Shown piece by piece: positions 28,554 through 53,928 of a stretch of DNA of 64,000 bases. Source of the stretch: an uncultured Peptococcaceae bacterium (lineage in GTDB: Bacteria; Bacillota; Dehalobacteriia; UBA4068; UBA4997); NCBI GenBank assembly GCA_947625705.1, contig CANQPG010000001.1, positions 56,963 to 120,962 of the forward strand, in the 5' to 3' direction. Under the pieces are notes generated by a model, which was not told where the DNA came from, made no database searches, and worked only from the letters and a program-made list of their open reading frames with translations. Made by a program: the position numbers and the translations under genes. Each line of letters starts with the position of its first letter. Within the stretch, counting starts at the first letter, position 1.

Positions 28554-28674
28554 GACAACCTCCTGTTACACTATCTTCTCTGCTTATTATGACCGCAGTT
28601 TCGGCCTCTATGATAATTACAGAAAATAACCGGGTTTTCCTGCCTTTTTGGCAATATTTTCCGCATTTTTGCGA

Positions 28675-28824
28675 GGCTCCGATAAAACTTTTCCGCTCCA
28701 TGACCTGCGCAAATTACGCGGAAAAGTATTATCCGAGCCCGCAATGCTTTGGGCGGGGCATTGATAAAACTTTCCGCTTCATGACCTGCGCAAATTACGC
28801 GGAAAGTATTATCAATACCCGCCG
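28675..28824. repeat. palindromic intergenic repeat cluster 1: two copies (28675-28740, 28756-28824) plus a degenerate third upstream
   Basis: Each unit is GATAAAACTTTYCCGC-TYCATGACCTGCGCAAATTAC-GCGGAAARGTATTATC. Its arms are reverse complements forming ~16-bp stems. Confidence 0.8.
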
Positions 28825-28835
28825 GTGCAAAGGAG

Positions 28836-28866
28836 CAAAAAAATGCCGGGGCAAACACCCCGGCAT
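28836..28866 (-). terminator. rho-independent terminator of the carboxyltransferase gene
   Basis: ATGCCGGGG-caaaca-CCCCGGCAT followed by a 7-U run on the minus strand. Confidence 0.7.
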
Positions 28867-28871
28867 TAAGC

Positions 28872-30293
28872 TTATTTATTATACTTTTGTTCAAGGAACG
28901 GTTTAGCAACCTGCGGGAACATGATGTACAACAGCAAGTCCTCGTCGTTTTTCGCCAAATCGCCGATCTCCTTTTTCGCGTCCTCCAGATAAGGCGGCAG
29001 ATCGTCCGCCGGGCGGTGCGTAATGCTGGGCAGATCGCCGATGATCTGCTTCTTGATCGCCTCGTCCATCGGCGCGGGCGGCTGGCCGTAATGCCCCTGG
29101 AAGTATGCCTTGACCTCGTTGGTCACCATCTTATAGCGCCCGCCGGAAAGCACGTTCATCAGCGCCTGCGAGCCAACGATCTGGCTGCTGGGCGTCACCA
29201 GCGGCGGATAACCCATATCCTTGCGGACGCGCGGCACCTCGGCCATCACCTCGTCCAGGCGATCCAGCGCGTTGGCGGCCTTAAGCTGCGAGAGGAAGTT
29301 GCTCATCATGCCGCCGGGAATTTGGCTGGCCAGCACGGTCGGGTCAACGCCAGGGTTAGAGATATCGTATTCCTTGTAATGGGTACGAATTTCCTTGACC
29401 TTGGGCGCGATCGCCAGCAGTTTTTCGATATCAATGCCGGTGTCATAGGGCGTACCCTTAAGCACGGCCACCATCACCTCGTCCGCCGGCTGGGAAGTAC
29501 CCATCGCGAGCGGGCTCATCGCGCAGTCCACCACGTCGCAGCCCGCCTCGATCGCTTTCATATAGCTCATCGCGGCCATGCCGGTGGTGTAATGGCAATG
29601 CAGCTGCACCGTGAGGCCAACCTGCTCCTTAATGCCTTTTACCAGGTCATAAGCGCCGTAAGGGTAAATCAGGCCGCTCATGTCCTTAATGCAGATACTG
29701 TCCGCGCCCATCGCTTTCAGCTTTTTGGCGATCTCCACGAAATGCGCGGTGTTATGCACCGGGCTGTTGGTGTAGGATACCGCCACCTGGGCGTGGCCGC
29801 CGTATTTCTTGGTGGCTTTCACGGCGCTTTCCACGTTGCGCACATCGTTCAGCGCGTCGAAAATGCGGATAATATCAATGCCGTTTTCGATACACTTCTT
29901 CACAAACAGATCGACCACGTCGTCGGAATAATGCCGGTAGCCCAGCAGATTCTGACCGCGCAGCAGCATTTGCAGCTTGGTGTTGGGGCAGGCCTTGCGG
30001 ATTTGGCGCAGGCGCTCCCACGGGTCCTCGTTCAAAAAGCGCATACAGCTGTCGAAAGTGGCGCCGCCCCAAACCTCCATGCTGTGAAAACCCACCTTAT
30101 CCAGATCCGACGCGACGGAGAGAATATCCTCCAGCGTCATACGGGTGGCAAGCAGGCTTTGGTGCGCGTCGCGGAGCGTGGTGTCGGTGATACCGACCTT
30201 ATGCTTGGCCGCCGCCTGGGGCTTGGCCGCGGGCGCAGCAGCCGGGGCGGGGGCAGGGCTTTCGCCCAGCAGTTTTTTGAAGAAACCAGCCAT
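28872..30293 (-). CDS. carboxyltransferase 5S-type subunit (oxaloacetate decarboxylase alpha / pyruvate carboxylase subunit B-like), no biotinyl domain
   Basis: A DRE_TIM / HMGL-like carboxyltransferase domain (GITDTTLRDAHQS). The start at MAGFFKK has an AAGGAGG Shine-Dalgarno. Its length excludes a C-terminal biotin domain. Confidence 0.8.
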   Translation of the reverse strand: MAGFFKKLLGESPAPAPAAAPAAKPQAAAKHKVGITDTTLRDAHQSLLATRMTLEDILSVASDLDKVGFHSMEVWGGATFDSCMRFLNEDPWERLRQIRKACPNTKLQMLLRGQNLLGYRHYSDDVVDLFVKKCIENGIDIIRIFDALNDVRNVESAVKATKKYGGHAQVAVSYTNSPVHNTAHFVEIAKKLKAMGADSICIKDMSGLIYPYGAYDLVKGIKEQVGLTVQLHCHYTTGMAAMSYMKAIEAGCDVVDCAMSPLAMGTSQPADEVMVAVLKGTPYDTGIDIEKLLAIAPKVKEIRTHYKEYDISNPGVDPTVLASQIPGGMMSNFLSQLKAANALDRLDEVMAEVPRVRKDMGYPPLVTPSSQIVGSQALMNVLSGGRYKMVTNEVKAYFQGHYGQPPAPMDEAIKKQIIGDLPSITHRPADDLPPYLEDAKKEIGDLAKNDEDLLLYIMFPQVAKPFLEQKYNK

Positions 30294-30374
30294 GATGACC
30301 TCCTTATTATTCACAAAATTTCGCTTAGCAACAATATACGCGGCGGCAGCCCATAAGCCACCGTCCGCGTATTC

Positions 30375-30403
30375 ATTATACCTAATTTACGGGCGCTTTT
30401 CAA
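30375..30403 (-). promoter_or_regulatory. sigma-A promoter, TTGAAA-17-TATAAT, for the carboxyltransferase gene
   Basis: Hexamers at 30398-30403 and 30375-30380 on the minus strand. Confidence 0.5.
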
Positions 30404-30424
30404 CAATAATTTGCAATTAAGCCA

Positions 30425-30910
30425 TTATTTGGCCGTATGGAATTTTTGCAGCAGCGCCTCGGCCACGCAGGGCGAAATAATGCCGTCGGGTATCTGCCCC
30501 AATTCACTGAAGTTCTTGACGATACTGGAGCTGACAAACTGATATTCCGGTGACGTCATCAAAAAAACGGAGTCCATCTCAGGCGCGACGTTTTTGTTCA
30601 TCTGCGCCATCTGAAATTCCTTTTCAAAATCGGAAAGCGCCCTGAGCCCCCGAATGATCGCCACCGCGCCCTCCCGGCGGCAGAAATCCACCAGCAGGCC
30701 GTCGAACGGCTTGACCTCTACATTCGGCAGCTCTGCCACGGCCTGTTGGGCAATTTCACAGCGTTCCGCCGCCGTAAACAGCGTCTGCTTGTAATTATCC
30801 TCCGCCACCGCCAGTATCAGCTTGTCGAACAGGCGGCAGGCACGGCGCAGAATATCAATGTGCCCCAGCGTTATCGGGTCAAAAGTTCCGGCATATACGG
30901 CAATTTTCAT
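30425..30910 (-). CDS. coaD: phosphopantetheine adenylyltransferase
   Basis: AVYAGTFDPITLGHIDIL (T/HxGH motif). The start is at MKIAVY. Confidence 0.92.
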   Translation of the reverse strand: MKIAVYAGTFDPITLGHIDILRRACRLFDKLILAVAEDNYKQTLFTAAERCEIAQQAVAELPNVEVKPFDGLLVDFCRREGAVAIIRGLRALSDFEKEFQMAQMNKNVAPEMDSVFLMTSPEYQFVSSSIVKNFSELGQIPDGIISPCVAEALLQKFHTAK

Positions 30911-30914
30911 ATTA

Positions 30915-31577
30915 TTACTCCTGTTCGGCTGCCCCGTCCAGCTTGCGCTGCCAGACTTCCGGGTTGGATACCAGCTCGCGGCAAAGCTCGCCCAGGTTGC
31001 GCACGTCCTGCTCATAGGCGGCCTTTTTGCTCGCGTCATAGATCAGCGCGGCGGGGTGATACAGCGGGTAGACCCAGACGTTGTGGGTGCGCCAGAAGAA
31101 CGCCTGCCCGTGATAGCGGCCGACGGCGGCGCTTTCGCCCATCACATAGCTAAGCGGCACGCCGCCCAGCGTCACCAACAGCTTCGGCGCCAGCAGGCGC
31201 AGCTCCAGCTCCAGCCAGGGGGCGCAGGTCTTGATCTCGTCCGGGGTGGGCTTGCGGTTGGCATAGCTGCCGTAGATACCGCGATTGCTGGGGCGGGTGG
31301 GGCGGCATTTCACCACGTTGCTGATGTATACCTCCTCGCGCTTTAAGCCGGCCAGCCGCAGAAAATCGTCCAGAATTTCCCCGGCCTGCCCGCAGAACGG
31401 GCGCCCCTCCTGATCCTCGCGGCCGCCGGGCGCTTCGCCCAGCATGAACACCATCGGCTTTTCGCGGTATTCGCCCGCCACGGCCTGCGTGCGCGTTTCA
31501 CACAGGCGGCAGCGCCGGCATTGCTTCAGCGCCGCCAGCCAGGTGGCAAAATCCAGCGGCTTCTTTTCCTCCGCCAT
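30915..31577 (-). CDS. uracil-DNA glycosylase, family 4
   Basis: Family 4 UDG motifs GEAPG and Cys cluster CRRCRLC. Confidence 0.85.
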   Translation of the reverse strand: MAEEKKPLDFATWLAALKQCRRCRLCETRTQAVAGEYREKPMVFMLGEAPGGREDQEGRPFCGQAGEILDDFLRLAGLKREEVYISNVVKCRPTRPSNRGIYGSYANRKPTPDEIKTCAPWLELELRLLAPKLLVTLGGVPLSYVMGESAAVGRYHGQAFFWRTHNVWVYPLYHPAALIYDASKKAAYEQDVRNLGELCRELVSNPEVWQRKLDGAAEQE

Positions 31578-31607
31578 AGCGCGTTCCTCCGCTTAAAAAC
31601 TTCTTAT

Positions 31608-32879
31608 TCAGTCCTCATAACCGGGGGCCACGGCCACCGGCTGCGGCTCGTTTCCGGTCAGTCTTTTCGCCGCGTCTTCCGGGAACAGCATCGCGCGCAC
31701 CCGCATCGGCAGCGCAAAGATGTTGATGAACCCGGTACCGTCAGCCTGATTATACACGTCGTCCACGCCAAAGGTGGCAAAATCCTCGCTGTACAGCGAA
31801 TAGGGGCTCTCCGTACCCGCCGCCGTCACGCTGCCCTTATAGAGCTTCAGGCGGACTTTGCCGGTGACGGTGCGCTGGGTGCTGTCCACAAACGCGTCCA
31901 TCGCCTCGCGGAGCGGCGAGAACCACACGCCGTCATAAACCAGCTCGGCATAACGCAGCGCCAGCTGCTCCTTGTAGTGCATGGTCACGCGATCCAGGCA
32001 CAATTCCTCCAGCTTCTGGTGCGCGTAATAGAGAATGGTGCCGCCGGGCGTTTCATAGACGCCGCGGGACTTCATGCCCACCAGACGGTTTTCGATCATA
32101 TCCACAATGCCGACGCCGTTTTTGGCGCCCAGCTCGTTCAGATAATCCATCAGCGCGGCGGGGGCAAGCTCTTTCCCGTCTACCCGCACCGGGATACCCT
32201 GTTCAAACTCAATTTCCACATAGGTGGGGGTATCGGGCGCCTGCTCCGGCGGGGTGCAGATCAGGAACATTTCGTTCTTCGGCTCGTTGGCCGGGTCTTC
32301 CAGATCAAGCCCCTCATGGCTCAAATGCCAGAGGTTTCTGTCCATCGAATAGCTGGTCTTTTTGGTGACGGCCAGCGGCACGTTATGGGCGGCGGCGTAA
32401 TCCATCGCCTGATCGCGCGACTGAATATCCCACTCACGCCAAGGGGCGATGATCTTCAAATCGGGCGCCAGCGCCTTTACGGCGGACTCAAAACGCACCT
32501 GATCGTTGCCCTTGCCGGTCGCGCCGTGGGCAATGGCCACCGCGCCCTCCTTGCGGGCGATTTCCACCAGACGGCGGGCGATCAGCGGGCGGGCAAAGGA
32601 AGTACCCAGCAGGTATTTGCCCTCATAGACCGCGCCGGCTTTCATCGTCGGGTAAATGTAGTCGGTCACGAATTCGTCGCGCAGATCCTCGATATACAGC
32701 TTGGACGCGCCGGTTTTGATGGCTTTCTCTTTCAGCGGCGCCAGCTCTTCGCCCTGCCCCACGTCGGCGCTCATCGCGATAACGTCATAGCCGTAGTTTT
32801 CTTTCAGCCACGGAATGATGATCGAGGTGTCCAGACCACCGGAATACGCCAGCACAACTTTTTCTTTTTTGTTAGTCAT
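31608..32879 (-). CDS. argG: argininosuccinate synthase
   Basis: [11 protein letters not shown]-loop motif. 423 aa. Confidence 0.95.
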
Positions 32880-32987
32880 TTTGTTCGCTCCTTAAAAATG
32901 TTTTCTATTATAAAAGTTAATATTTTGAACGATTTTCGCCTATATTTTACTATATATTCCTGATTTTGCCAAGTGTTTTATTATCTG

Positions 32988-33172
32988 GCGGTCTTTGATA
33001 AATTTTTTCGCTACATGAGTTCCGCTTCGCTGCACTAAATTTCGCGAAAAAAATTATCAAAGCCCACTTTAACAAGCCCTTCATTGCCGGCGGGCTCGGA
33101 TAATACTTTCCCGCTGATTTTAGCGAAGCGCAGCGGAGGTCATGAAGCGGGAAAGTTTTATCGGAGCCCCGC
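32988..33172. repeat. palindromic intergenic repeat cluster 2: two copies (32988-33066, 33092-33172)
   Basis: The same family, long-loop variant with inner core CATGACCTCCGCTGCGCTTCGCTAAAAT. Confidence 0.75.
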
Positions 33173-33181
33173 AAAAACTTA

Positions 33182-34141
33182 TCACTTATCCAACAATAAT
33201 AACGCCATGACGGCCATCTGGGCATACAAACGATTTTCAGCTTCGTCAAAAATCTCCGGGTGGCTCTCGAAAACTTCTTCCGTAATTTCCTCGCCGCGGT
33301 GGGCAGGCAGACAATGCAGCACCATCGCGTCCGCCTTGGCCTGCGCCATCAGCTTGTCATTCACCTGATAGACCCCGGCAAACACCGCCTCGCGCGCGGC
33401 TTTCTCCGCCTCCTGACCCATCGACGCCCAAACGTCGGTGTAGATAACGTCGGCGTCTTTCGCCGCTTCCATGGGGTCGTTCACCACGGTGACGCTGCCG
33501 CCGGCGTCTTGCGCCGCCGCCTGCGCTTCGGCCACCACGTGCGCGTCGGGCAGATACCCCTCCGGGCAGGCGCAGCAGACGTGCATGCCCATACGCGCCC
33601 CGCCGTTCATCAGCGAGTGCGCCATGTTGTTGCCGTCGCCGATAAACGCCATTTTCAGCCCGGCCAGCTTCCCCTTATGCTCGCGTATCGTCTGCAGATC
33701 GGCCAGCACCTGGCAGGGGTGCAGCAGATCGGTCAGCCCGTTGATGACGGGAATATCGGCATATTCCGCCAGCTCGGTCACGATGTCGTGGCTGAACGTG
33801 CGGATCATCAGCCCGTTCAGAAAGCGCGAAAGCACCCGCGCCGTGTCCTTGATCGGCTCGCCGCGGCCAATTTGCAGGTCGTGCGAGGACAGGAACAGCC
33901 CCATGCCGCCCAGATAATAAATGCCGCTTTCAAACGAAACGCGGGTGCGGGTGCTGCTTTTCTCGAAGATCAGCCCCATCGTTTTGCCCTTTAAGTAGGG
34001 CGTTTCATGCCCCGCCTTATGCTCGGCTTTCAAATAATCCGCCACGTCCAGAAAATACGCCAAGTCCTCGGCTGTATAATCCAGCAGCGAGAGGAAATCT
34101 CGCCCGGCGTAATCAGTTTTCAGTTTCATAAGTTCAGTCAT
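33182..34141 (-). CDS. argF: ornithine carbamoyltransferase
   Basis: STRTR carbamoyl-phosphate motif and HCLPA. The start at 34141 forms an ATGA overlap with the argD stop. Confidence 0.93.
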   Translation of the reverse strand: MTELMKLKTDYAGRDFLSLLDYTAEDLAYFLDVADYLKAEHKAGHETPYLKGKTMGLIFEKSSTRTRVSFESGIYYLGGMGLFLSSHDLQIGRGEPIKDTARVLSRFLNGLMIRTFSHDIVTELAEYADIPVINGLTDLLHPCQVLADLQTIREHKGKLAGLKMAFIGDGNNMAHSLMNGGARMGMHVCCACPEGYLPDAHVVAEAQAAAQDAGGSVTVVNDPMEAAKDADVIYTDVWASMGQEAEKAAREAVFAGVYQVNDKLMAQAKADAMVLHCLPAHRGEEITEEVFESHPEIFDEAENRLYAQMAVMALLLLDK

Positions 34142-35334
34142 GCGCACACCTCCGTCAATACGTCATGCAATATCTGCAAAAATTCGTCCGCTTCCGCCCG
34201 GCTGATGGTAAGCGGCGGGATAAACCGCAGCACCGTGCCCGCCGTGCAGTTAATGAGCAGCCCGCGCTCCAGGCATTTCTTCACGATGTCCGCGCCGGGG
34301 ATAGTTAGCTGCAAACCCAGCAGCAGCCCACAGCCCCGCACCTCCAGCAGGCAGGGGAACTCGTTGATCATCTCGCCCAGGCGCTCTTTAAGATACGCGC
34401 CGGTGGCCGCCGCCTGTGCCGGGATATCCTTATCCAGCATTTCATTAAGCACCGCCAGCCCCGCCGCGCAGGCCACGGGGTTGCCGCCGAACGTGGAGCC
34501 GTGGTCGCCCGGCTTGAACGCCTGCGCCACCTTGTCTTTCGCCATAAACGCGCCCAGCGGCAGGCCGCCGCCCAAAGCTTTCGCCAGCGTGATGATATCG
34601 GGGCAGACGCCGCTATTCTGATAGGCGAACAGTTTGCCCGTGCGCCCCATGCCCGTCTGCACCTCGTCGTAGATCAGCAGGATATCCCGCTCGTCGCAAA
34701 GCTGCCGCAGCGCCTGCAAAAATTCGGCGTCGGCGGGGTAAACGCCGCCCTCGCCCTGCAAAGGCTCCAGCATAATGGCGCAGGTCGCTTCGTCCACCGC
34801 GGCCAGCACGGAAGCCAGATTGTTGTACTGCGCGTATTTGAAGCCCGGCGCCAGCGGCTCAAAGCCCAGGTGCATTTTATCCTGGCCGGTGGCCGTCAAC
34901 GTCAGCAGCGTCCGCCCGTGGAACGAGTTTTTCATCGTGACGACGCATTTGCGCTCCGGGTGTTCCTTATAGATCGCATAACGCCGCGCCAGCTTCACCG
35001 CGCCCTCGTTGGCCTCGGCGCCGCTGTTGCCGAAGAACACCTTATCGAAGTCGGAATTCTGCACCAGCAGCTCGGCCAGCTGCACCTGCGGCTCAAGCCA
35101 ATAAAGGTTGGAAGCGTGGATAAGCTGCCGCGCCTGCGCCGCAATGGCCTGCGCCACCGCCGGGTGCGCCTGCCCCAGCGCGTTGACGGCGATACCCGCC
35201 ACAAAATCCAGATATTTATTGCCGTCGGCGTCGAAAACGTACGCGCCCTCGCCCCGCACCATCGCCATAGGCAGGCGGTTGAACACGTTCATGCAATACT
35301 TTTCGCCTTTGGCCTTGATTTCCGCGTTGTTCAT
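34138..35334 (-). CDS. argD: acetylornithine aminotransferase
   Basis: Class III PLP aminotransferase in arg operon context. Confidence 0.92.
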   Translation of the reverse strand: MNNAEIKAKGEKYCMNVFNRLPMAMVRGEGAYVFDADGNKYLDFVAGIAVNALGQAHPAVAQAIAAQARQLIHASNLYWLEPQVQLAELLVQNSDFDKVFFGNSGAEANEGAVKLARRYAIYKEHPERKCVVTMKNSFHGRTLLTLTATGQDKMHLGFEPLAPGFKYAQYNNLASVLAAVDEATCAIMLEPLQGEGGVYPADAEFLQALRQLCDERDILLIYDEVQTGMGRTGKLFAYQNSGVCPDIITLAKALGGGLPLGAFMAKDKVAQAFKPGDHGSTFGGNPVACAAGLAVLNEMLDKDIPAQAAATGAYLKERLGEMINEFPCLLEVRGCGLLLGLQLTIPGADIVKKCLERGLLINCTAGTVLRFIPPLTISRAEADEFLQILHDVLTEVCA

Positions 35335-35348
35335 GCCAAACGTCCTCC

Positions 35349-36215
35349 TTATTTGTTCACCACCATGGTGCCGATACCCTCGCGGGTGAAAATTTCCAGC
35401 AGTATGCAGTGCAGCACCCGGCCGTCCAGAATATGCACGGTGTTCACGCCGCTTTTCACCGCGTGGACGCAGCAGTCGATCTTCGGGAGCATTCCCCCGG
35501 CGATCACGCCGTCGCGCTTCAAGCCCTCCACCAGCCGCACGGGGAGGACGGATATCAGCGAGCTTTTATCCTTATAATCGCGGAACAGCCCCTCCACGTC
35601 GGTCAGCAGCACCAGCTTTTCCGCCTTAAGCGCCGCCGCCACCGCGCCCGCCGCCAAATCGGCGTTCACATTGTAGCTTTCGCCGTGGCGGCCGACCGCC
35701 ACCGGGGAAATAACGGGGATATATTCCTGATCCAGCAGCGAATTTAAAAGGTCAACGTTGACGCTTTCCACCTCGCCCACCAGGCCAAGGTCGGCCTCGC
35801 CACGCTTTTTGTGGGCGACGAGGAGGTTCGCGTCCGCGCCGGAAAGCCCCACCGCCGCGCCGCCGTTCTGGTTCAGATACTTGACGATACTGCTGTTCAC
35901 CTTGCCGGTAAGCACCATCTCCACCACCTGCATGGTGGCCGGGTCAGTCACGCGCTGGCCGCCGATAAACTCGGATTTCAGCTGCATTTTGTCCAGCATA
36001 CTGTTGATGTCGGGGCCGCCGCCGTGCACCACCACCGGGCGCATGCCCACCAGCTGCATCAGCACCACGTCTTTCAGCACGGCTTCTTTCAGTTCCTCGT
36101 TGATCATGGCGTTGCCGCCGTATTTGATCACCACCGTTTTGCCGTGGAATTTTTTGATGTACGGCAGCGCCTCCACCAGTATCGAGGCTTTGTCGATGGC
36201 CGAAAAATCGTTCAT
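35349..36215 (-). CDS. argB: acetylglutamate kinase
   Basis: Amino-acid kinase family, 288 aa. Confidence 0.93.
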
Positions 36216-36248
36216 TTCTGCTTTCTCCCAAATTATGTATCGTTATGT

Positions 36249-37499
36249 CTAGCTGCGGTAATCCGCGTTGATGTTCACATATTCATGGCTTAAGTCGCAG
36301 CCCCAGGACGTGGCGGTATACGCGCCCCGCCCCAGCGTCAGCAGGATTTTGATCTCCCGCTCCTGCAAAATTTTGGCAGCCTGCGCTTCGTCAAACGGCA
36401 AGCCCGCGCCGTTCTGCATAAGGTCTATGCCGCCCGCCGCGCTTTCCAGCCGCAGGTTCACTTCCGCCGTGTCAAACTCCGCCCCGGAATAGCCCGCCGC
36501 GCAGATGATACGCCCCCAGTTGGCGTCCTCGCCGTAAAACGCCGCCTTGACCAGGCTGGAGCAGACGACCGCCTTGGCCGCCAGCCGCGCGTCTTTTAAG
36601 CTCGCCGCGCCGGCAACGACACATTCCAGCAGCTTCGTCGCCCCCTCGCCGTCATACGCCATCAGCTTGGCCAGCCGCGCCGCCACAAAGATAAGCGCCG
36701 AAAGAAACGCCGCATAACCCTCGCCGTCCGCCGCAACCGGGTCATTCCCCGCCGCGCCGTTCGCCAGCACCAGCATGGTATCGTTGGTGGAGGTGTCGCC
36801 GTCCACCGTCACCATATTGAACGTGGCCGCCGCCGCCTCGGAAACAGCCTTTTGCAGCGCGGGCTGCGCGATCGCCAGGTCAGTGGTGATGAAGCACAGC
36901 ATGGTCGCCATGTTGGGGTGGATCATGCCGCTCCCCTTGGCCATGCCGCCCACGGTGATCAGCTTGCCCTGATATTCATACGTCACGGCGCACTGCTTCA
37001 GGCAGGTGTCCGTCGTCATAATGGCCTCGGCCGCGTCACGGCCTCCCTCATACGTCAGCTTGCCCGCGATGTCGGCCACACCGTCCAGCACGGTTGCAAT
37101 CGGCATAGTCACGCCGATCACGCCGGTGCTGCAAACCAGCACCTCGTCTGCCGGGATATGTAACGCCTCGCCCACGGCCTGTGCCGTTTGCGCCGCGTGC
37201 TCGTCGCCAACTTTCCCGGTGCAGGCGTTGGCGTTGCCGCTGTTCACCACGATGGCGCGCGCCGCGCCTTTTGCGTTCACCTTACGGCACCAGTTTACCG
37301 GCGCCGCCGCAAATTTATTCTGCGTAAACACGCCGCCGCAGACCGCCGGCCGCTCCGACGCCAGCAGCGCCAGATCCTTTTTCGCCGCGTTGTTTTTAAT
37401 ACCGGCGTGGATACCCGCCGCCACAAAGCCCCTGGCCGCCGTCACGCCGCCGCCGATCTCCTGCATGGCATGGGCGGCGTTCATATTATTCTCTGTCAA
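36249..37499 (-). CDS. argJ: bifunctional glutamate N-acetyltransferase / ornithine acetyltransferase
   Basis: ArgJ autoproteolysis-site region (..ATML..). Confidence 0.92.
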   Translation of the reverse strand: MTENNMNAAHAMQEIGGGVTAARGFVAAGIHAGIKNNAAKKDLALLASERPAVCGGVFTQNKFAAAPVNWCRKVNAKGAARAIVVNSGNANACTGKVGDEHAAQTAQAVGEALHIPADEVLVCSTGVIGVTMPIATVLDGVADIAGKLTYEGGRDAAEAIMTTDTCLKQCAVTYEYQGKLITVGGMAKGSGMIHPNMATMLCFITTDLAIAQPALQKAVSEAAAATFNMVTVDGDTSTNDTMLVLANGAAGNDPVAADGEGYAAFLSALIFVAARLAKLMAYDGEGATKLLECVVAGAASLKDARLAAKAVVCSSLVKAAFYGEDANWGRIICAAGYSGAEFDTAEVNLRLESAAGGIDLMQNGAGLPFDEAQAAKILQEREIKILLTLGRGAYTATSWGCDLSHEYVNINADYRS

Positions 37500-37533
37500 A
37501 ATACTATCACTCTTTCCTTTATATTTTCGCCGC

Positions 37534-38574
37534 TTACGGCATCATCGGGAGCTGTTCCAGCCCCATCGTCTCGGGCAGGCCGAACATCAGGTTCAAATTC
37601 TGCACCGCCTGACCGGAAGCCCCCTTAACAATATTATCGATCGCCGAGCTGATGACCAAAATACCCGTTCGGCTGTCTAATTTCAAGTTAATATCGCAGA
37701 AGTTGCTGCCCGCCACCCATTTGGTGTGCGGCCAAACCCCCTCCGGCAGAAAGCGCACGAAGTATTCGTCCGCGTACGCCGCCTGATACAGCTCCCGCAG
37801 CTCCTTTTCCGCCACGGGTTTTTTAAGCTGCGCGTACACTGTGGCCAAAATGCCCCGGCTCATCGGCGTTAAATGCGGCGTGAACAGCACCTGCGCCGGC
37901 TCGCCCGCCATACGCGAAAGCCCCCGCTCAATTTCCGGTGTGTGGCGGTGCCCTGCCACGCCGTATGCGTTGATACTGTCGTTGCTCTCGCAGAACAGCA
38001 GATGTTTTTCCGCCTTACGCCCCGCCCCGGTGATACCGGATTTGCAGTCGGCGATGACCGGGCGGGAAAGATCGGCCAGCCCCGCCTTTAACAGCGGATA
38101 CAGCGCCAGCTGCACGCTGGTGGGATAGCAGCCGGGATTGCCCACCAGATCGGCGCCCTTAATTTCATCGCGCCAAATTTCCGGCAGGCCGTATACCGCC
38201 TGCGGCAAAAGCTCCGGGTGCGGGTGGCGGGTCTTATACCACGTTTCGTATACCGCCGCGTCGTCGAAGCGGAAATCCGCGCCAAGATCGATCACCTTAA
38301 CGCCGCGCGAGAGCAGCTGCGCCGACGTCTCCGCCGAGACCCCGGCCGGCAGCGCCAAAATCGCCACATCGCAGGCGGCCAGACGCTCGATATTCATTTC
38401 CTCCACCGGCATATTCACCTGTTCCCGAAACCACGGCGAAATATCCGCCAGCTCCTGCCCGGCGTTGCTGTGGCCGAACAGGGCGGAAATCTCCACCTTG
38501 GGGTGGCGGGACAACAGGCGTATCGCCTCGCCGCCCGCATACCCGGCAGCGCCCACTATGGCCGCTTTGATCAT
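37534..38574 (-). CDS. argC: N-acetyl-gamma-glutamyl-phosphate reductase
   Basis: Semialdehyde dehydrogenase family, 346 aa. Confidence 0.93.
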   Translation of the reverse strand: MIKAAIVGAAGYAGGEAIRLLSRHPKVEISALFGHSNAGQELADISPWFREQVNMPVEEMNIERLAACDVAILALPAGVSAETSAQLLSRGVKVIDLGADFRFDDAAVYETWYKTRHPHPELLPQAVYGLPEIWRDEIKGADLVGNPGCYPTSVQLALYPLLKAGLADLSRPVIADCKSGITGAGRKAEKHLLFCESNDSINAYGVAGHRHTPEIERGLSRMAGEPAQVLFTPHLTPMSRGILATVYAQLKKPVAEKELRELYQAAYADEYFVRFLPEGVWPHTKWVAGSNFCDINLKLDSRTGILVISSAIDNIVKGASGQAVQNLNLMFGLPETMGLEQLPMMP

Positions 38575-38610
38575 CGAAAATCACACTCCTTGTGACCGAT
38601 TATAAGGCAT

Positions 38611-38651
38611 ATTATATACCCGCCGCGCGCAAATTGCAAGAGGCAATTTGC
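38611..38651 (-). promoter_or_regulatory. arg operon promoter (TTGCAA-17-TATAAT) overlapped by a 9-bp perfect inverted repeat GCAAATTGC-N5-GCAATTTGC
   Basis: Hexamers at 38634-38639 and 38611-38616. The inverted repeat at 38629-38651 is a candidate ArgR/AhrC operator. Confidence 0.4.
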
Positions 38652-38693
38652 TATAATATACAAAAACCGTGCATATTTTATCAGAAATTGCTT

Positions 38694-39659
38694 TCATGAT
38701 AAATATACACGGCGTAAATTGCGTCCGCAGGCGTCGGCACACTGCATAATGCGCTCCCGCTCGGCAGGGGAAAGCTCTCGCCGCGGCGCAATCAAATGAT
38801 ACGGCAGCTCCGGTGAGACCGCCTCGGCCAGATAAGCCGAAAGCCCGGCCAGCATGATGGGGTCGTCGTTTTTGCCGAAGATGATGGGCGTCGCCACCTC
38901 CAAATGCACGGTGCTTTCCGCCAGCAGCCGCAGCGACCGCAGCACCGCCTCAAACTGTATGCGCATTTCCTCGCGGTAGAACAATGGGTCGAAGCTGAAA
39001 AGGTCAAACCGCACGGCGCCGAGGTACGGGATAAGCTCGGTGAGCGGGCGGGGATTGACAAAACCCGCCGTCGCCAAAATGCAGCGCATATCGCACTTTT
39101 GCAGCAGCATGGCCGTCTGCATGATGAACTCATACCACAGCAGGGGTTCGGCGTAAGCGAACGCCACGCCCACCAGCCCCTGCGGCACCATATTCATACA
39201 TATATTCACGATGTCGCGCGGATAGATCGTCCGCCCGGAGCCCGGTTCCGCCCCAAACTGCTCGCGCCCGCCGCCGGGTGAGATGAAGTTGCAGCCGAAA
39301 GACCCCAGCTTCAGCACCGCGCCGCCCGACGCGTATTCCGCCAGCGGGATACTTTCCACCTTGGCGAATTGCAGCAGGGAAAGCCAATTATGGTTGGCCG
39401 CCCAAAGCCTGGCGTCCCTGTTATAGCGCGTGCCGCACCAGCCGCGCTCGCCCGGGGCCAGCTCGCAGAAGCGGGGGCAGAGATCGCAGCCCACCGCGCC
39501 CGCCGGCAGGCGGTGGCAAAAGGCCGCCTCGCCGCGCGCCACCTGCGGCCGCGCCGAATATTCTCGCATACCAAACGTCTCCATGACTGAAAAAATACTT
39601 ATGCGAGTTAATTCGGCAAATTTTGCGCAAACCCTCTTTTGCGGGCGGCTTTTGGCCAT
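38694..39659 (-). CDS. PflA/AmmeMemoRadiSam-like protein in which the canonical radical-SAM CxxxCxxC motif appears degenerate
   Basis: N-terminal CDLCPRFC..WCG auxiliary Cys motif typical of this family. At the position where CxxxCxxC is expected, the sequence reads GCNFISPGGG with a single Cys. Confidence 0.45.
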   Translation of the reverse strand: MAKSRPQKRVCAKFAELTRISIFSVMETFGMREYSARPQVARGEAAFCHRLPAGAVGCDLCPRFCELAPGERGWCGTRYNRDARLWAANHNWLSLLQFAKVESIPLAEYASGGAVLKLGSFGCNFISPGGGREQFGAEPGSGRTIYPRDIVNICMNMVPQGLVGVAFAYAEPLLWYEFIMQTAMLLQKCDMRCILATAGFVNPRPLTELIPYLGAVRFDLFSFDPLFYREEMRIQFEAVLRSLRLLAESTVHLEVATPIIFGKNDDPIMLAGLSAYLAEAVSPELPYHLIAPRRELSPAERERIMQCADACGRNLRRVYLS

Positions 39660-39674
39660 GTCAAAAACTTCCGC

Positions 39675-40418
39675 CTAAAAATCACTCACCGGCTGGTCGG
39701 CGTAATAACCGACGATACCGAGGAACACCGCGTATGCCGCCAGCTGCTGATAACCGGGATCGGCCAGCAGCTTCTCCTCCTCCGGATTGGATAGAAAGCC
39801 CACCTCCACCACGATCGAGGGGATCGCCAGATTGTTCACCACGTATATGTTCTGAATGGATTTAGCCACGCGGTCGGTGTTTTGCAGCACGGAAGCCAGG
39901 CTCTGCTGGATACTCTCGGATAACCCCTTGCCCTCGGTGCTCCCCGCCGCGTAGAACACCTGGCCGCCGCGATACTGCGCCTGCGGAATACTGTTAGACT
40001 GAATGGTGATGAAGAGGTCAGCCTCGGCTTCCTCCGCGATCGCCACCCGGCGCTTGATATCCTCCCGCTTGGTTTCGGCAAGAGCCGTGTCTTCCGTCCG
40101 CGTTTCCACCACATTCGCCCCCACCTGCCGCAGCAGAGCGGCCACCCGGCGGCTGACGGCCAGATTGACGTCCTTTTCCAGCGTCCCCGCGCCGCCGACT
40201 GCGCCGGGATCAAAACCGCCGTGACCCGCGTCGATCACGATGACCTTGCCCAGCAGCGCCAATGCCAGCGCCTCATGCTCGTCCTCCGCCCCCAGCTTCG
40301 GCAGTTCAAAAGCGCCCGCCAACACCAAAACAAAAGCCAGCGCCAGCACCAGCATACTGCGCAGACGCAGCAGCCGACGTGCCGCACGCAGGCTGATTGG
40401 GGCAATTTTCCGTTTCAT
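39675..40418 (-). CDS. cwlD: N-acetylmuramoyl-L-alanine amidase, germination-specific CwlD-like
   Basis: Amidase_3 domain (VIDAGHGG..E..N), N-terminal membrane anchor, in a sporulation neighbourhood. Confidence 0.8.
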   Translation of the reverse strand: MKRKIAPISLRAARRLLRLRSMLVLALAFVLVLAGAFELPKLGAEDEHEALALALLGKVIVIDAGHGGFDPGAVGGAGTLEKDVNLAVSRRVAALLRQVGANVVETRTEDTALAETKREDIKRRVAIAEEAEADLFITIQSNSIPQAQYRGGQVFYAAGSTEGKGLSESIQQSLASVLQNTDRVAKSIQNIYVVNNLAIPSIVVEVGFLSNPEEEKLLADPGYQQLAAYAVFLGIVGYYADQPVSDF

Positions 40419-40502
40419 TACGCCACCCCCGGAAAGAGAGTTCTGGGGGATATATATGCCGGGCAGCTTAAAATAAGTAAGCTGAAAACAAAAAAATTGT
40501 AC

Positions 40503-40750
40503 AGGGTTTTGATAATTTTTTTCGCGAAATTTAGCGCAGCGCAGCGGAGGTCATGTAGCGAAAAAATTTATCAAAGCCCTTTTTGTATTGTTTTGGCAGG
40601 GCTCCGATAAAACTTTTCCACTTCATGACCTGCGCTAAATCAGTGGAAAAGTATTATCCGAGCCCTTTATGTTGCTTTGGCGTGGCATTGATAAAACTTT
40701 CCACTTCATGACCTGCGCAAATTACGTGGAAAGTATTATCAATGCCCGCC
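40503..40750. repeat. palindromic intergenic repeat cluster 3: three copies (40503-40580, 40598-40667, 40683-40750)
   Basis: The same repeat family, with both short-loop and long-loop variants. Confidence 0.8.
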
Positions 40751-40752
40751 GG

Positions 40753-41520
40753 TTAGACATACTTGCGCAAGCGCAGCAGCGCATTTTTTTCCAAACGGCT
40801 GACCTGCGCCTGGCTGATACCGATTTCTTCGGCCACTTCCATCTGCGTCTTGCCGACGAAAAAGCGCAGCCCGATGATCTTCTGTTCCCGCTCGTTCAGG
40901 GCGGCAAGGGCATTGGCGATAGCCAGCTGCTCCGTCCAAAGCTGATCGCCCGCCTTTTCGTCTTTCACCTGATCGACGACGTATATCGGGTCGCCGCCGT
41001 CGTTATAGATCGGCTCGAAAAGCGAGACCGGCTCGGCGATCGCGTCCAGCGCGAACACCACCTGCTCCGCCGGCATGGCGAGGCGCTCCGCCACCTCGGC
41101 GATTTTCGGCTCGCGCCCTTTCTCCGCCGCCAGCTGATCACGGGCGGAAAGCGCCTTATACGCCAGATCGCGCACCGAACGGCTGACGCGAATGGTGTTG
41201 TTATCGCGCAGATACCGCCGGATCTCGCCGATGATCATCGGCACGGCATAGGTGGAAAAGCGCACGTTCAGCGAGAGGTCAAAATTGTCGATCGCTTTCA
41301 GCAGGCCGATACAGCCGACCTGGAACAGATCGTCGGGGTTTTCGCCCCGGCTGCCGAACCGCTGGACGATGGAAAGCACCAGCCGCAGGTTGCATTTCAC
41401 CAGCTTATCCCGCGCCGCCTTATCGCCCGCCTTGGCCGCATAAAAAAGCTCGCGCATTTCCTCGTTGCCCAGCACCGGCAGCTTGGCCGTGTTCACGCCG
41501 CAGATCTCCACCTTACGCAC
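40753..41520 (-). CDS. sigG: sporulation sigma factor G
   Basis: Near-identity to SigG over KVEICGVNTAKLPVL..NLRLVLSIVQRF..FSTYAVPMIIGEIRRYLRDNN. The start was placed at GTG 41520, which has a GGAGG Shine-Dalgarno. The track ORF begins at an upstream TTG. Confidence 0.9.
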   Translation of the reverse strand: MRKVEICGVNTAKLPVLGNEEMRELFYAAKAGDKAARDKLVKCNLRLVLSIVQRFGSRGENPDDLFQVGCIGLLKAIDNFDLSLNVRFSTYAVPMIIGEIRRYLRDNNTIRVSRSVRDLAYKALSARDQLAAEKGREPKIAEVAERLAMPAEQVVFALDAIAEPVSLFEPIYNDGGDPIYVVDQVKDEKAGDQLWTEQLAIANALAALNEREQKIIGLRFFVGKTQMEVAEEIGISQAQVSRLEKNALLRLRKYV

Positions 41521-41561
41521 CGCTATCGCCTCCGCAAAAATTTGGCTTTTTACAACAACCA

Positions 41562-41591
41562 AATTATTGCCGGAAGACGGGGCAAATATTC
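41562..41591 (-). promoter_or_regulatory. sigma-F/sigma-G type forespore promoter of sigG (GAATA-15nt-GGCAATAATT)
   Basis: -35 GAATA at 41587-41591 and -10 GGCAATAATT at 41562-41571 on the minus strand, matching GHATR-15-GGnnAnAnTa. Confidence 0.55.
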
Positions 41592-41637
41592 AGCCCGCGC
41601 GCCGTTAACTTCTGCCAGAAAAGGTCAATATCCGCGC

Positions 41638-42411
41638 TTATTCCAGGCGGCTCATTTCTTTTTTCAGCCGGCTGAAGATACGCTTTTCCAGCCGGGAAAT
41701 GTATGACTGCGAAATGCCCAGCATATCCGCCACTTCCTTTTGCGTCAGCGGCTTTTGCCCGAACAGCCCGAAGCGCAGCTCCACGATCTTCTTCTCGCGC
41801 GGGCTTAGGGTGGCGATGGCCTGCCGCAGCAATTTCCGGTCAACCTCCTCCTCCAGCTCGCGGTAGATGATGTCGCCGTCGGTGCCTAGGACGTCGGAGA
41901 GCAGCAGCTCGTTGCCGTCCCAGTCGATGTTAAGGGGCTCGTCGAAAGAAACCTCGCTTTTCAGCTTGCTGCTGCGCCGCAGCGTCATCAGTATCTCGTT
42001 TTCAATACAGCGCGAGGCATAGGTGGCCAGCTTGATCTTCTTCTCCGGGTTAAACGTGTTCACCGCCTTGATCAGCCCGATCGTGCCGATGGACGCCAGA
42101 TCCTCCAGCCCCAGGCCGGTGTTCTCAAATTTGCGCGCTATGTACACCACCAGCCGCAGGTTATGCTCGATCAGCTCACTGCGGACGCTGGTATCGCCCG
42201 CCGCCAGCCGCTGCATCAGCTCCCGCTCCTCCTCGGCGGAAAGCGGCGCGGGCAGCGCCTCGCCCCCGCCCACGTAATATACGCCCGGCTCCTCGCCGCC
42301 CAAAATATGCTTCAGGCACGCGCTCAGCCAGCCCTTCAGCCGCGCCAGCCAGCCCTCGTCCGTATCCTGCCAGAAATCCCGCCGAAAATCCCGCTTCAAA
42401 TCCTGCTTCAT
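41638..42411 (-). CDS. sigE: sporulation sigma factor E (pro-sigma-E)
   Basis: [43 protein letters not shown] with an N-terminal pro-sequence. The ATG at 42411 overlaps the spoIIGA stop as ATGA. An alternative upstream start lies at 42432. Confidence 0.9.
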
Positions 42412-43358
42412 GCTTCCAGCCGCTCCTCCCATATGTTATCGTATGCCGCCGTATCCTCGCCGCCGAACACCGCCTCCGGTGCGACGATCGCCCGCGCCCC
42501 GGATAGCCCCCCAAAGCCTGCCGCGTTAAACGCGACCAGCGGCGTCTGCGGCGGGATTATCTTCCGCCCGTCCGCCGGATAAAACGCCGCCGCGTCCGGC
42601 AGAAACCCCAGCGTCAGCCGCCCCGCCGCCCCCACCACATGATAGGGTATCAGCCTGAGGCGCCCGCCCCAGGGCGCGGGGGCAAAGTCGGCCAAAATCT
42701 GCTGCGGGCGAAAGTCATTGCCGTTGATACGCAGCTCCTGCGCCAGCCGCTCGGCCAGATCCTGCGGCAGCCAGCTCTGCACCGCCGCCAGCTCCGCCAG
42801 CAGCACCGCCCGCCCGGAAACCGGGTCGCGCAGGCGGTTGCCGCTGTCCAGAAAGCAGGGGAGCGCCAGCGTTTTGCCGTTTAAGCTCAGTTCCGCCCGC
42901 ACGATCAGGCCGCTTTGCCGCGCCTGACGCCGCCAAACGCCCACACCCAGCGCCGCCATAGCCCCCGCCAGCAGCAGCGCCGGGATCAGCCAGATAAAAC
43001 TCATGCCCGCCGCCGCGCCATAGCCCAACAGCGCCCGCACGGCCAGCGCCGCGCCGCCCATCGCAAAGCTCAAAATGTAAAAGCAGGCGGCCAGCCAGCC
43101 AAAGCGCTTCAGCGGCAGCCGCCCGAAGCAGACCAGGAGCATCAGCAGCGAAAAGATCACGGGCAGCGGCATGATGTAGAGCGGCGCCAGCGCCGGGAAC
43201 AGCAGCCCCACGCCGTAAAAAGCGCCGAACGCCGCCGCGAGCACTCCCCGGAACCGACGGAACACAAAGCCGCCGAAGCGCCCCGCCGCCCAAAGCAGCG
43301 CCAGATCCAGCGCAAAATTCACCAGCCACAGCACGTCCGCGTACACCGTGTAGACCAC
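42408..43358 (-). CDS. spoIIGA: sigma-E processing aspartic peptidase SpoIIGA
   Basis: N-terminal [14 protein letters not shown], multiple TM segments and the LDSGN aspartyl-protease motif. The start was placed at GTG 43358, which has an AAGGGGGTGAGG Shine-Dalgarno. The track ORF starts at a TTG that abuts the -10 box. Confidence 0.85.
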
Positions 43359-43384
43359 TGCCCTCACCCCCTTGCCATACGCCA

Positions 43385-43417
43385 ATTATAGCGCGGCCGG
43401 GGCGGAAAACTTGTCAG
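43385..43417 (-). promoter_or_regulatory. spoIIG promoter with -35 CTGACA and -10 TATAAT separated by 21 nt
   Basis: -10 at 43385-43390 and -35 at 43412-43417 on the minus strand. A 21-22 bp spacer is the hallmark of the Spo0A~P-dependent spoIIG promoter. Confidence 0.45.
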
Positions 43418-43452
43418 TTTGGGGCAGCGGCGGTCTGTTTTATTGCAACAAA

Positions 43453-43704
43453 TTAAGGCATTTTACGCCCCGCGCCCTGCGGCGGCCGTTTCGGCGCTTT
43501 GCCGGGATAACGCCCGGAAAGCACGCCGCCCAGTCTGCCGCTTTCCTCCGCCGTAAGGCTCGCCCAGCCCTCGCTCTGCACCTTATCCCAAAGGCCAAGC
43601 TCCTTGGCTATCTCGTCTTTGGCGGCCTCCCAGCCGGCGGTGCGCCGTTTCATTTTGCTTTTGCGGCTTCTGCCCTCGTCCGGTTTAACCGGCATTTCCA
43701 TCAC
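43453..43704 (-). CDS. small acid-soluble spore protein, alpha/beta-type (divergent)
   Basis: An 83-aa basic protein. A..EIAKELG..LT..ESGRLGGVLSGR matches the SASP DNA-binding pattern (K.EIA.E.G...T.R.NGSVGGEITKR). Confidence 0.5.
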   Translation of the reverse strand: MMEMPVKPDEGRSRKSKMKRRTAGWEAAKDEIAKELGLWDKVQSEGWASLTAEESGRLGGVLSGRYPGKAPKRPPQGAGRKMP

Positions 43705-43795
43705 CTCGTCAGTATTTTCTGGCTTTAATCTGCCCCGCCGGGCGTTTGACTATGCACCGCCGATGTGATAGACTGGCTGTTGGAGGTATTAAACG

Positions 43796-44350
43796 ATGGA
43801 CTTGACATTGACCGATATCAAACAGGACAAGGCGGCGTGGCGGCAGATAGCCGCGCTTTACAAAACGGCTTTCCCGGCGGACGAGCGCGCGCCCTTTTGG
43901 CTGCTTAAGCGGAAAGCGCTGCAAGGGCGGGCGCAAATGCTCGCGGCGTATGACGCGGGGCAGTTTGCGGGTTTCACTTATCTGGTCATATACCGTGATC
44001 TGGTTTATCTGTTTTATTTTGCCATTGACGACGCCCGGCGGGGCAAAGGCTATGGCAGCGCGGTGTTGCAGGCATTGCGGCGGGAATATCCGGAGCAGCG
44101 CATTTTCCTGGCGCGGGAACAGCTGGACGACCAGGCTGAAAACGCCGCACAGCGGCGCACCCGCCATCAGTTTTACCTGGCGAACGGCTTTGCCGACTGG
44201 CCGTGCCAAATCAAGGAGGCCAGCGTGATCTACGATGTGATGGGCATGGGCGGCGATAACGTGACGCCGCAGGAATATCAGGCGCTGATCGAGGGCTGGT
44301 GCGGATCGCTTATGCGGCGGCTTATCGACATGCGTGTATTGGCAAAATAG
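43796..44350 (+). CDS. GNAT-family N-acetyltransferase
   Basis: RRGKGYGSAVL acetyl-CoA binding motif. A TTGACT-17-TAGACT promoter lies upstream. Confidence 0.75.
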   Translation: MDLTLTDIKQDKAAWRQIAALYKTAFPADERAPFWLLKRKALQGRAQMLAAYDAGQFAGFTYLVIYRDLVYLFYFAIDDARRGKGYGSAVLQALRREYPEQRIFLAREQLDDQAENAAQRRTRHQFYLANGFADWPCQIKEASVIYDVMGMGGDNVTPQEYQALIEGWCGSLMRRLIDMRVLAK

Positions 44351-44370
44351 CCTAACAAGGACTTAGTAAA

Positions 44371-44533
44371 CGGGTATTGATAATACTTTTCGCTGATTTT
44401 AGCGAAGCGCAGCGGAGGTCATGAAGCGAAAAGTTTTATCAATGCCCGGCTTTTATCTCTGGTGGTCTCCGATAAAACTTTTCCACTACATGACCTGCGC
44501 AAATTTCGTGGAAAAGTATTATCCGAGCCCGCC
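44371..44533. repeat. palindromic intergenic repeat cluster 4: two copies (44371-44450, 44465-44533)
   Basis: The same family, one long-loop and one short-loop copy. Confidence 0.8.
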
Positions 44534-44544
44534 AAAAAAAGCAA

Positions 44545-44590
44545 CAAAAAACGGCGAAAGCATTAAACGCTTTCGCCGTTTTATTTTTTT
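44545..44590. terminator. strong bidirectional rho-independent terminator
   Basis: ACGGCGAAAGC-attaaac-GCTTTCGCCGT flanked by an A6 run and TTTTATTTTTTT. Confidence 0.75.
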
Positions 44591-44595
44591 CGGTT

Positions 44596-44979: not shown

Positions 44980-45286
44980 GACCTCCCAATTTATTTATGC
45001 TTCCTGTAATATAGCAGAGAAATATCAACCCAATATCAAGCAATACTGTGTTAATTATACTCCGATTTGCGCTTTCTGACAAGTTAATTTCCGCCAAGTG
45101 CAAAATAAAAGTAGCTTTTTGCCGAACCTTGTATTATAATATGTATGAAAATATTTGCGGAAACGCCGCAATCCCGCGCCAGCTGGCAGGTTTGGCCAGT
45201 TTTGGCAAAGGCGGCATATTAGATCGTTTTTCATCTATATTATAGTGTTTGCTTGTGTTGTTTGTTTTTGCGGAGGTAAACGCTTT

Positions 45287-51733: not shown

Positions 51734-51820
51734 AAGAAAACCCCCCATCACAAATATTATTTCCTAAGCTTATCACACTTTGCGGCATTTGGCAACAGAT
51801 TTCAGCAAATATCGCCGCTG

Positions 51821-53925: not shown

Positions 53926-53928
53926 AGC

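Follow-up and report, generated by a model that had tools for sequence, protein, structure and literature searches.

A mosaic family of hairpin-forming intergenic repeats in an uncultured Peptococcaceae bacterium and its sister species

We analyzed 64,000 nucleotides of forward-strand DNA from an uncultured Peptococcaceae bacterium (assembly GCA_947625705.1, contig CANQPG010000001.1, positions 56,963 to 120,962; hereafter the window) and found that it contains exactly nine copies of one repeat family, arranged in four intergenic clusters and divided into five short-loop (S) and four long-loop (L) units. The explanation we favor, and hold to be probable though by no means assured, is that these units form a lineage-restricted, non-coding and non-autonomous family of hairpin repeats resembling the bacterial interspersed mosaic elements (BIMEs), their nearest kind being the small palindromic repeats of the repetitive extragenic palindromic (REP)/BIME type or of the MITE type (miniature inverted-repeat transposable elements). 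The family most likely behaves as selfish DNA that is gained, truncated, reshuffled and inverted, near-identical where it is 'alive' and decaying where it is not. The best reading is that it is still active or was so recently.

Repeat detection, a degenerate motif, a covariance model and blastn-short recovered these nine units and no others in the 64 kb. For the covariance model (R1), which was built from the nine window units, the window was scanned with all filters off; the units scored 75.8-93 bits (E 1e-17 to 1e-22), the next match in the window had an E-value of 0.25, and the opposite strands of the nine units scored 32-39 bits. The degenerate motif search of the window gave 4 matches against 0.00 expected. 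These four independent methods bear out an earlier sequence-only reading of this DNA, which had placed nine clear copies in four clusters at these sites and had described a short and a long loop variant. A partial tenth copy that it had also listed was undetectable in the window with either the covariance model or blastn-short. All of the copies are intergenic (0 of 9 in coding sequence), and local copy density amounted to 9 copies in the 64 kb of the window, 3 in 10.5 kb of a related locus (L023; related loci are given here by L numbers) and 2 in 14.7 kb of L163 and L165 taken together.

Each unit spans 65-88 nt and comprises a loop of 19-31 nt, with the L loop exceeding the S loop by 10-12 nt, and a stem of 20-26 bp; the stem had previously been put at about 16 bp, a figure that falls short of the full arms with their outer clamp. 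Every tested copy folded far better than shuffled sequence (z -4.6 to -7.4; -26 to -48 kcal/mol). The anatomy was read from an alignment of 15 intact copies from four species. The outermost part of the stem is a GC-type clamp, approximately GGCGGGGC/GCCCCGCC, inside which lies a variable segment of 3-4 bp that occurs in three covarying classes (CTCC/CGAG, CATT/AATG and TTT/AAA), followed inward by an invariant GATAA/TTATC box. Inward of an A·A mismatch come two further covarying pairs (AC/GT or TT/AA) and then a T-run/A-run, and the inner clamp takes the form CCGC/GCGG, CCAC/GTGG or TCGC/GCGA. The loop starts T-N-CATGACC, in which CATGACC is conserved. The elements GATAAA, CATG, ATTATC and the A·A mismatch were unchanged in all 15 copies. 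The repeat ends earlier described as shared termini occur in these three covarying stem classes rather than as one common sequence.

Base pairing was maintained where the stem sequence changed. Seven of the 20 modelled pairs vary on both sides, in 28 cells, and pairing holds in 93% of cells as against 42-58% when the partner column was slid; the observed covariation score was reached by none of 500 shuffles, with the caveat that the alignment had been fitted to the model. With its three stem classes, invariant mismatch and invariant box, conservation of structure alone is unusually clear here. No conserved open reading frame (ORF) was found in the units, and in copy 3a, read from its sequence, the loop ATG is directly followed by the stop codon TAG. 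Coding potential was rejected, as the frames past the loop ATG differ between copies and the GGAGG-TC-ATG of the reverse L loop is too tight for a ribosome-binding site. An anti-Shine-Dalgarno small RNA (sRNA), for which the CCUCC of the forward L loop was considered, was likewise rejected as unsupported, its orientation relative to transcription being inconsistent. For annotation, the repeats account for four ORF calls in the window that had already been suspected of being spurious.

The clusters are composed of S-S (cluster 1), L-L (cluster 2), L-S-S (cluster 3) and L-S (cluster 4), an order in which the variants, unlike in the earlier description, alternate but not strictly. Orientations within them (+,+ in cluster 1; +,- in cluster 2; -,+,+ in cluster 3; -,+ in cluster 4) show no regular alternation. 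What the arrays do share is a fixed mosaic order with common linkers, namely a reverse L unit, an S unit of the CTCC class and an S unit of the CATT class, whose full form is cluster 3. Clusters 1 and 4 are overlapping sub-arrays of this order: cluster 4 aligns to the left two units of cluster 3 (4a-4b with 3a-3b) and cluster 1 to the right two, linkers included. The 1a-1b dimer with its linker is homologous to 3b-3c (81% including flanks), and copies 3c and 1b alone were 94% identical in the repeat detection. Cluster 2 is a separate pair type, L+L.

Judged by its ArgG, its GroEL and a CoA-activase-like protein, the window belongs beside Candidatus Avidehalobacter gallistercoris, an uncultured Peptococcaceae bacterium of the chicken gut (genus name from PMC8035907). 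In the cwlD-to-argF DNA beside clusters 2 and 3, the window is ~90% identical to L023 and L031 and 86% identical to A. gallistercoris; these represent sister species, not strains. Insertion polymorphism was evident across four sites and six lineages, copies being present, absent or different. At the argF-argG site, the window has L+L, L023 has S+L, and L031-34 have a 3'-arm remnant plus one copy with a shortened loop; A. gallistercoris (L020) has one diverged copy (33.6 bits), L024-L030 have none, and L163 has one S copy elsewhere in the spacer. Three copies at the sigG-cwlD site of the window correspond to one in L023 and to none in L031-34 and L154, and none was detected in A. gallistercoris (L020, L155). 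The oadA-trmK site carries two copies in the window, a half copy in L032 and none in A. gallistercoris; the L023 contig does not include it. After GNAT, the window has two copies, A. gallistercoris two decayed relics and L154 none, and the contigs of L023 and L031-34 do not cover the site. The relics (L155 9125-9255; one forward-like, one reverse L-like) were seen by eye and lie below covariance-model detection, suggesting that the family is dead in A. gallistercoris.

Truncation was seen in two copies, of which one is reduced to a 3'-arm remnant joined to the argF stop codon (L031 7801-7824) and the other to a half unit directly after the oadA terminator (L032 6102-6129); they indicate that copies are lost by partial deletion and not by clean excision alone. 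An S copy lies downstream of the groEL terminator in L165, which comes from the same assembly as L163, at a place where the window has no copy; the family is thus not tied to the 16-kb region. The sequence-only reading had staked its claim on the element occurring beyond this region, and this copy, together with the variable presence and form of copies between sister species, answers it in the affirmative. The core of copy 4b is identical (60/60 nt by blastn-short) to L023 and L163 copies at other sites, and the L023a and L163 copies agree over 76 nt while occupying different positions in one spacer type (argF-argG). At ~10% neutral divergence, we calculated the chance of a 60-nt identity as 0.9^60, or ~0.002, which is unlikely for neutral DNA and points to recent spread or strong constraint.

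Comparison with L023 further indicated that copies turn around in place. All three comparable window/L023 copies matched better after reverse-complementing than in the same orientation (76/86 vs 63/87 for copy 3a; 64/89 vs 59/90 and 66/83 vs 49/84 for the other two). At the sigG-cwlD site (3a), the L023 copy has its interior inverted, A·A mismatch and loop included, whereas the outermost mismatch (GGGCTTTG / CAAAACCC) retains its chromosomal orientation, which places the breakpoints inside the perfect TTTGATAA/TTATCAAA stretch of the arms. We rejected an assembly artefact by inference, as inverted stretches without a mismatch reach no more than 9 nt in 3a, which is below the k-mer length of any assembler, and as the inner mismatch at this site is flipped and the outer one is not. 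The argG-proximal copy (2a) has the same loop variant, GAGTTCCGCTTCGCTGCAC, in the window and in L023, and the L023 ortholog is inverted; its stem class is TTT in the window vs CATT in L023, with 5-6 pairs differing, all of them compensated. Since both stem classes occur elsewhere in both genomes, this switch looks like conversion between copies rather than stepwise mutation. Orientation was the same in four independent samples of one species. In-place inversion and stem-class switching are the only aspects of the family that we find surprising, and mildly so; the flipping habit is unusual. The sequence-only reading had remarked neither on the inversions nor on the covarying stem classes, the unchanging A·A mismatch or the constant L-S-S order.

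Database searches returned no further members. Rfam 15 has no family for the repeats, the gathering-threshold and E-value scans giving only sub-threshold microRNA/sRNA noise (E at least 0.3). A strict motif search of GTDB species representatives, which demanded CATGA and would miss diverged variants such as the L020 copy, gave 19 single matches, in keeping with the ~35 chance matches estimated by hand for an 18-base pattern; the covariance model was positive in none of the 19, and the two matches in Clostridia were coincidences in coding sequence. With a looser motif, none of 119 single matches in JGI metagenomes fit the covariance model; none of 5 motif matches in viral contigs had a 3' arm, and plasmid and phage records gave no blastn match. 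Within the limits of these exact-pattern scans, the family is confined to a few species of this genus.

The genes of the window are the housekeeping genes of a GC-rich sporulating Firmicute (fatty-acid synthesis, GroES/EL, purine and arginine biosynthesis, spoIIGA-sigE-sigG, cwlD and ATP synthase), and those flanking the clusters (oadA-like/trmK, argF/argG, sigG/cwlD and GNAT) had been named correctly before. In the spacer before trmK, cluster 1 follows the oadA-like gene's canonical terminator and so is not itself that terminator. Cluster 2 occupies the gap between the argF stop codon and a conserved argG promoter-like site, and cluster 3 starts at the sigG stop codon and runs in the direction of cwlD. 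Cluster 4 has the GNAT stop codon on one side and a bidirectional terminator on the other and is therefore probably in the GNAT 3' untranslated region (UTR). No T-run follows any of the nine units, and the terminator scan called the two terminators of Table 1 and none of the units; all promoter-like sites predicted across 28000-45200 fall outside the units. Location relative to terminators and promoters varies from cluster to cluster, and orientation relative to the flanking genes is mixed. A placement at operon 3' ends and 5' leaders, as first proposed, is apt as a description only: with a variable position, and an orientation that is inconsistent and flips between species, it lends no support to a strand-specific RNA role. 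No transposase or recombinase was found among the window ORFs scanned, in agreement with the earlier remark that no transposase is linked. The scanned window ORFs and the called genes of the syntenic loci contained no gene for a REP-associated tyrosine transposase (RAYT; Y1/HUH), and neither the window nor ~0.3 Mb of syntenic DNA contained an insertion sequence (IS) with the repeat's ends. Target-site duplications, which had been suggested as a check, were absent from the directly read flanks of the nine window copies.

Table 1. Repeat copies in the window and the transcription signals next to them (covariance-model scores under model R1)
Feature	Positions	Strand	Stem class	Score (bits)	Remarks
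Copy 1a, S	28670-28745	+	CTCC/CGAG	83.7	hairpin -34.8 kcal/mol, z -7.4
Copy 1b, S	28752-28826	+	CATT/AATA	93	
Copy 2a, L	32985-33070	+	TTT/AAA	75.8	loop variant GAGTTCCGCTTCGCTGCAC
Copy 2b, L	33087-33174	-	CTCC/CGAG	79.4	directly 3' of argF stop codon; fold z -4.6 and -5.9
Copy 3a, L	40499-40584	-	TTT/AAA	83.3	
Copy 3b, S	40595-40670	+	CTCC/CGAG	83.9	
Copy 3c, S	40679-40753	+	CATT/AATG	88.3	abuts sigG stop codon
Copy 4a, L	44367-44452	-	CATT/AATA	84.8	17 nt past GNAT stop codon
Copy 4b, S	44460-44535	+	CTCC/CGAG	80.1	upstream of the bidirectional terminator
Canonical intrinsic terminator of oadA-like gene	28842-28867	-			terminator scan
argG promoter-like site TTGGCA-17-TAAAAT	32944-32972	-			predicted; conserved in relatives
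Bidirectional intrinsic terminator	44548-44582	.			terminator scan

We propose that the copies spread, or spread until recently, by means of a trans-acting enzyme whose gene would lie beyond the window. That box, mismatch and loop are conserved where the stems covary freely suggests a trans-acting protein that reads the folded form, by analogy with REP/RAYT systems, IS200/IS605 ends and attC sites; the enzyme would recognize the folded single-strand or cruciform DNA by its GATAA box, its mismatch and its loop. Exchange between copies, by recombination or gene conversion, would reshuffle them and switch their stem class, and recombination or template switching between a copy's own arms would invert it in place. 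Any benefit to the host, for example as a 3'-end RNA hairpin, would be secondary, and such a role could coexist with the behavior of selfish DNA.

Several observations weigh against this proposal. Neither the scanned window ORFs nor the genes called in the syntenic loci (~0.3 Mb, from this and related lineages) included a transposase or other mobilizing gene, and all nine window copies lie within 16 kb, where local duplication could also explain them. High identity across species could mean purifying selection on a host function and not recent mobility, and arm-to-arm conversion in an inverted repeat could yield covariation without selection for folding. Nor did comparison of the window with L020, or of L163 with L024, give a clean filled-versus-empty site with a target duplication, because the intergenic flanks are too diverged; spacers are replaced there, not interrupted. 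A more specific version of the proposal, which we consider decidedly doubtful, would assign both spread and inversion to a hairpin-specific enzyme (Y1/HUH-type, or another nuclease or recombinase) acting on folded single-strand or cruciform DNA, with the GATAA box, the A·A mismatch and the CATGACC loop as its recognition code. This enzyme, or hairpin-templated replication switching, would flip units and swap stem classes, and the whole would constitute a REP/RAYT-like system that arose independently outside the phyla from which REPs are known. If this were true, in-place 'flip-flop' would be a regular part of the life cycle of such a system.

Alternatively, the units may be host-functional RNA hairpins in 3' UTRs or intercistronic spacers that act as barriers to 3'-5' exonucleases, make RNA polymerase pause or terminate, or insulate adjacent operons from one another, a role suggested for E. 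coli REPs, with selection keeping their sequence. We regard this as unlikely, even though the hairpins are very stable, changes in their stems are compensated, clusters 2 and 3 directly follow stop codons (those of argF and sigG) at which no canonical terminator is predicted, and cluster 4 separates the GNAT stop codon from the terminator of that gene. A second long-hairpin repeat, unrelated to the first and carrying a T-run, is found at the 3' end of groEL in the window and of argF in relatives, and it also indicates that, in this genus, the 3' ends of operons tend to carry repeat hairpins. However, no copy has a U-tract or is called as a terminator, cluster 1 comes after a canonical terminator, and orientation relative to transcription is mixed (5 of 7 copies between co-directional genes point one way) and flips between species at the same site. 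Sister species exist without any copy at the same sites, and a simple protective hairpin would not need the conserved loop, the GATAA box and the A·A mismatch.

Classical MITEs, that is, deletion derivatives of a DDE-type IS whose arms are terminal inverted repeats and which move by cut-and-paste with target-site duplication, would account for arms of 20-26 bp around a short interior and for a presence that varies by species. One copy invites this comparison in particular: in L163 (2880-3000), an S copy lies between an imperfect 18-nt direct duplication of the argG -35 region (ATAAAAACACTTGGCAAG / ATAAAAATGCTTGGCAAG). This duplication is atypical, being too long and imperfect for a classical target-site duplication; it has two mismatches and far exceeds the usual DDE length, though the element that it encloses exactly matches a copy from another species. 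We think a MITE origin very unlikely, since flanking direct repeats were found at 0 of 9 window copies, no IS with these ends was found in the DNA searched, and tandem arrays with fixed linkers are atypical of MITEs; moreover, inverted repeats bound by a transposase should keep their sequence, whereas here three arm classes covary freely with pairing kept. Least probable of all, to our minds, is that the units are sites at the DNA level, either cruciform or nucleoid-protein sites centered on the inverted GATAA boxes or small recombinase-flipped switches whose orientation is regulatory. The GATAA/TTATC boxes are indeed inverted and invariant, and all three orthologous copies are inverted between two species, with breakpoints within the arms at site 3. 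Yet the invertible core measures only ~19-45 nt, which is too short for known invertase synapses, no gene for a recombinase is found nearby, every promoter-like site predicted in the repeat region is outside the units, the four samples of one species agree in orientation, and the sites are dispensable in sister species. CRISPR, attC, Fur-box and parS-type sites were dismissed from the sequence, as spacing, motifs and context do not fit. Nor do the repeats represent intrinsic terminators, an RNA family already known, or arrays of the CRISPR or attC type.

Among known systems, REP/BIME elements are the closest in behavior to the family described here. Like those of Proteobacteria, the present repeats are multi-copy intergenic imperfect palindromes that form short arrays, in which units of distinct types and mixed orientation are joined by characteristic linkers. 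Both also conserve structure above stem sequence, have a conserved mismatch that gives the hairpin polarity, lack an adjoining transposase at most copies and differ in abundance between related species. Genomes with REPs carry a RAYT (Y1/HUH) gene, typically flanked by REPs; no RAYT gene was found in the scanned ORFs of the window and syntenic loci, and the loop of our units is long and conserved. REPs have a high copy number, usually >100 per genome, and BIMEs consist of regularly spaced units of distinct types with alternating orientation and characteristic linkers (PMC2817692), whereas orientation within the present arrays does not alternate regularly. The host is also a Firmicute, a phylum absent from the REP survey in PMC3733652. 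REPs are defined there as 20-40 bp imperfect palindromes with GTAG (or CGTC) at one end; our units are two to three times REP length, and they end in GGCGGGGC / GCCCCGCC, with GTAG solely internal (CATGTAGCG) and present in some copies only. The label 'REP/MITE-like' given by the sequence-only reading fits as a general class, that of non-coding, multi-copy intergenic palindromes in small clusters, and does not extend to formal membership, from which size, the GTAG/CGTC tag and the lack of target-site duplication set the family apart.

The likeness to hairpin MITEs (Correia/NEMIS of Neisseria, RUP of pneumococcus and ERIC) is partial. These elements are also short, non-coding and intergenic, lie by promoters and terminators and show insertion polymorphism between relatives; unlike them, the nine copies here have neither target-site duplications nor a recognizable parent IS, their arms covary, and they form tandem mosaics with fixed linkers. 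Membership is therefore partly supported, by insertion polymorphism and not by target-site duplication. In small hairpin-loop inversions, such as those of chloroplast intergenic hairpins and of E. coli quasi-palindrome template switching, the interior occurs in both orientations at one locus with breakpoints in the arms, and the same is seen here; the difference is that our hairpin is a member of a dispersed family and that its flips coincide with replacement of loop type and stem class. In IS200/IS605 ends and integron attC sites, as here, a folded strand carries a conserved box and an unpaired base that gives polarity, leaving the stem free to covary. That likeness is one of logic only, as no Y1/HUH or integrase gene was found in the window and syntenic loci and there are no cassette ORFs and no GTTRRRY core. 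In an inverton, inverted repeats flank a promoter segment that an invertase encoded alongside can flip, and both orientations occur within one population. Here orientation does differ between species at all three sites, but the core is <50 nt, with no promoter predicted inside and no recombinase nearby, and the four samples of one species have a common orientation.

Other features of the window were noted in passing. The second repeat family mentioned above is a ~120-nt long hairpin at 10705-10826 (+; -55 kcal/mol, z -6.3) that starts AATAGCGGCACATCTGCTG and ends in a T-run. It is also present at L163 2739-2850, L024 9679-9870 and L025 3320-3500, with a related element at L023 ~300-450, and it may act as a repeat-borne terminator; the argF 3' end that it occupies in sister species is where the window has copies of the first family. 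Two structured RNAs alone pass the Rfam gathering threshold in the window, an RNase P RNA of class A (25858-26214, -, 274.6 bits) and a cobalamin riboswitch truncated at the edge of the window (1-166, -, 84.2 bits). A stand-alone 94-aa GIY-YIG domain protein (14415-14699, -), found at the same place in L165, has a nuclease fold, and we have no evidence tying it to the repeats. Two adjoining 202-aa ORFs (51143-51751 and 51821-52429, both -) have no confident Pfam family and are probably tandem paralogues; they have in common a 185-nt direct repeat that is 76% identical (51453-51637 and 52149-52333), and the ORF beside them encodes a copper amine oxidase N-terminal-like domain. A long ORF at 53728-56301 (+) has a low GC content at third codon positions (0.60) and no Pfam match; as it lies opposite the minus-strand ATP synthase beta, gamma and epsilon region of relatives, it is almost certainly a spurious antisense ORF.

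Together, our results describe a new family of an already familiar and common kind. Many families of small palindromic repeats exist, most of them of no more than local interest; the present one contributes a clearly bounded example from an uncultured lineage of gut Firmicutes, a phylum that is poorly represented among REP-type elements. For annotation, it warns that spacers in these metagenome-assembled genomes are filled by at least two repeat families, possibly next to promoters and operon ends. The three stem classes, the invariant mismatch and the invariant box together predict a hairpin-recognizing partner, and since the sister species show the element being gained, truncated, decaying and inverting, they offer a compact natural system for the study of repeat turnover.

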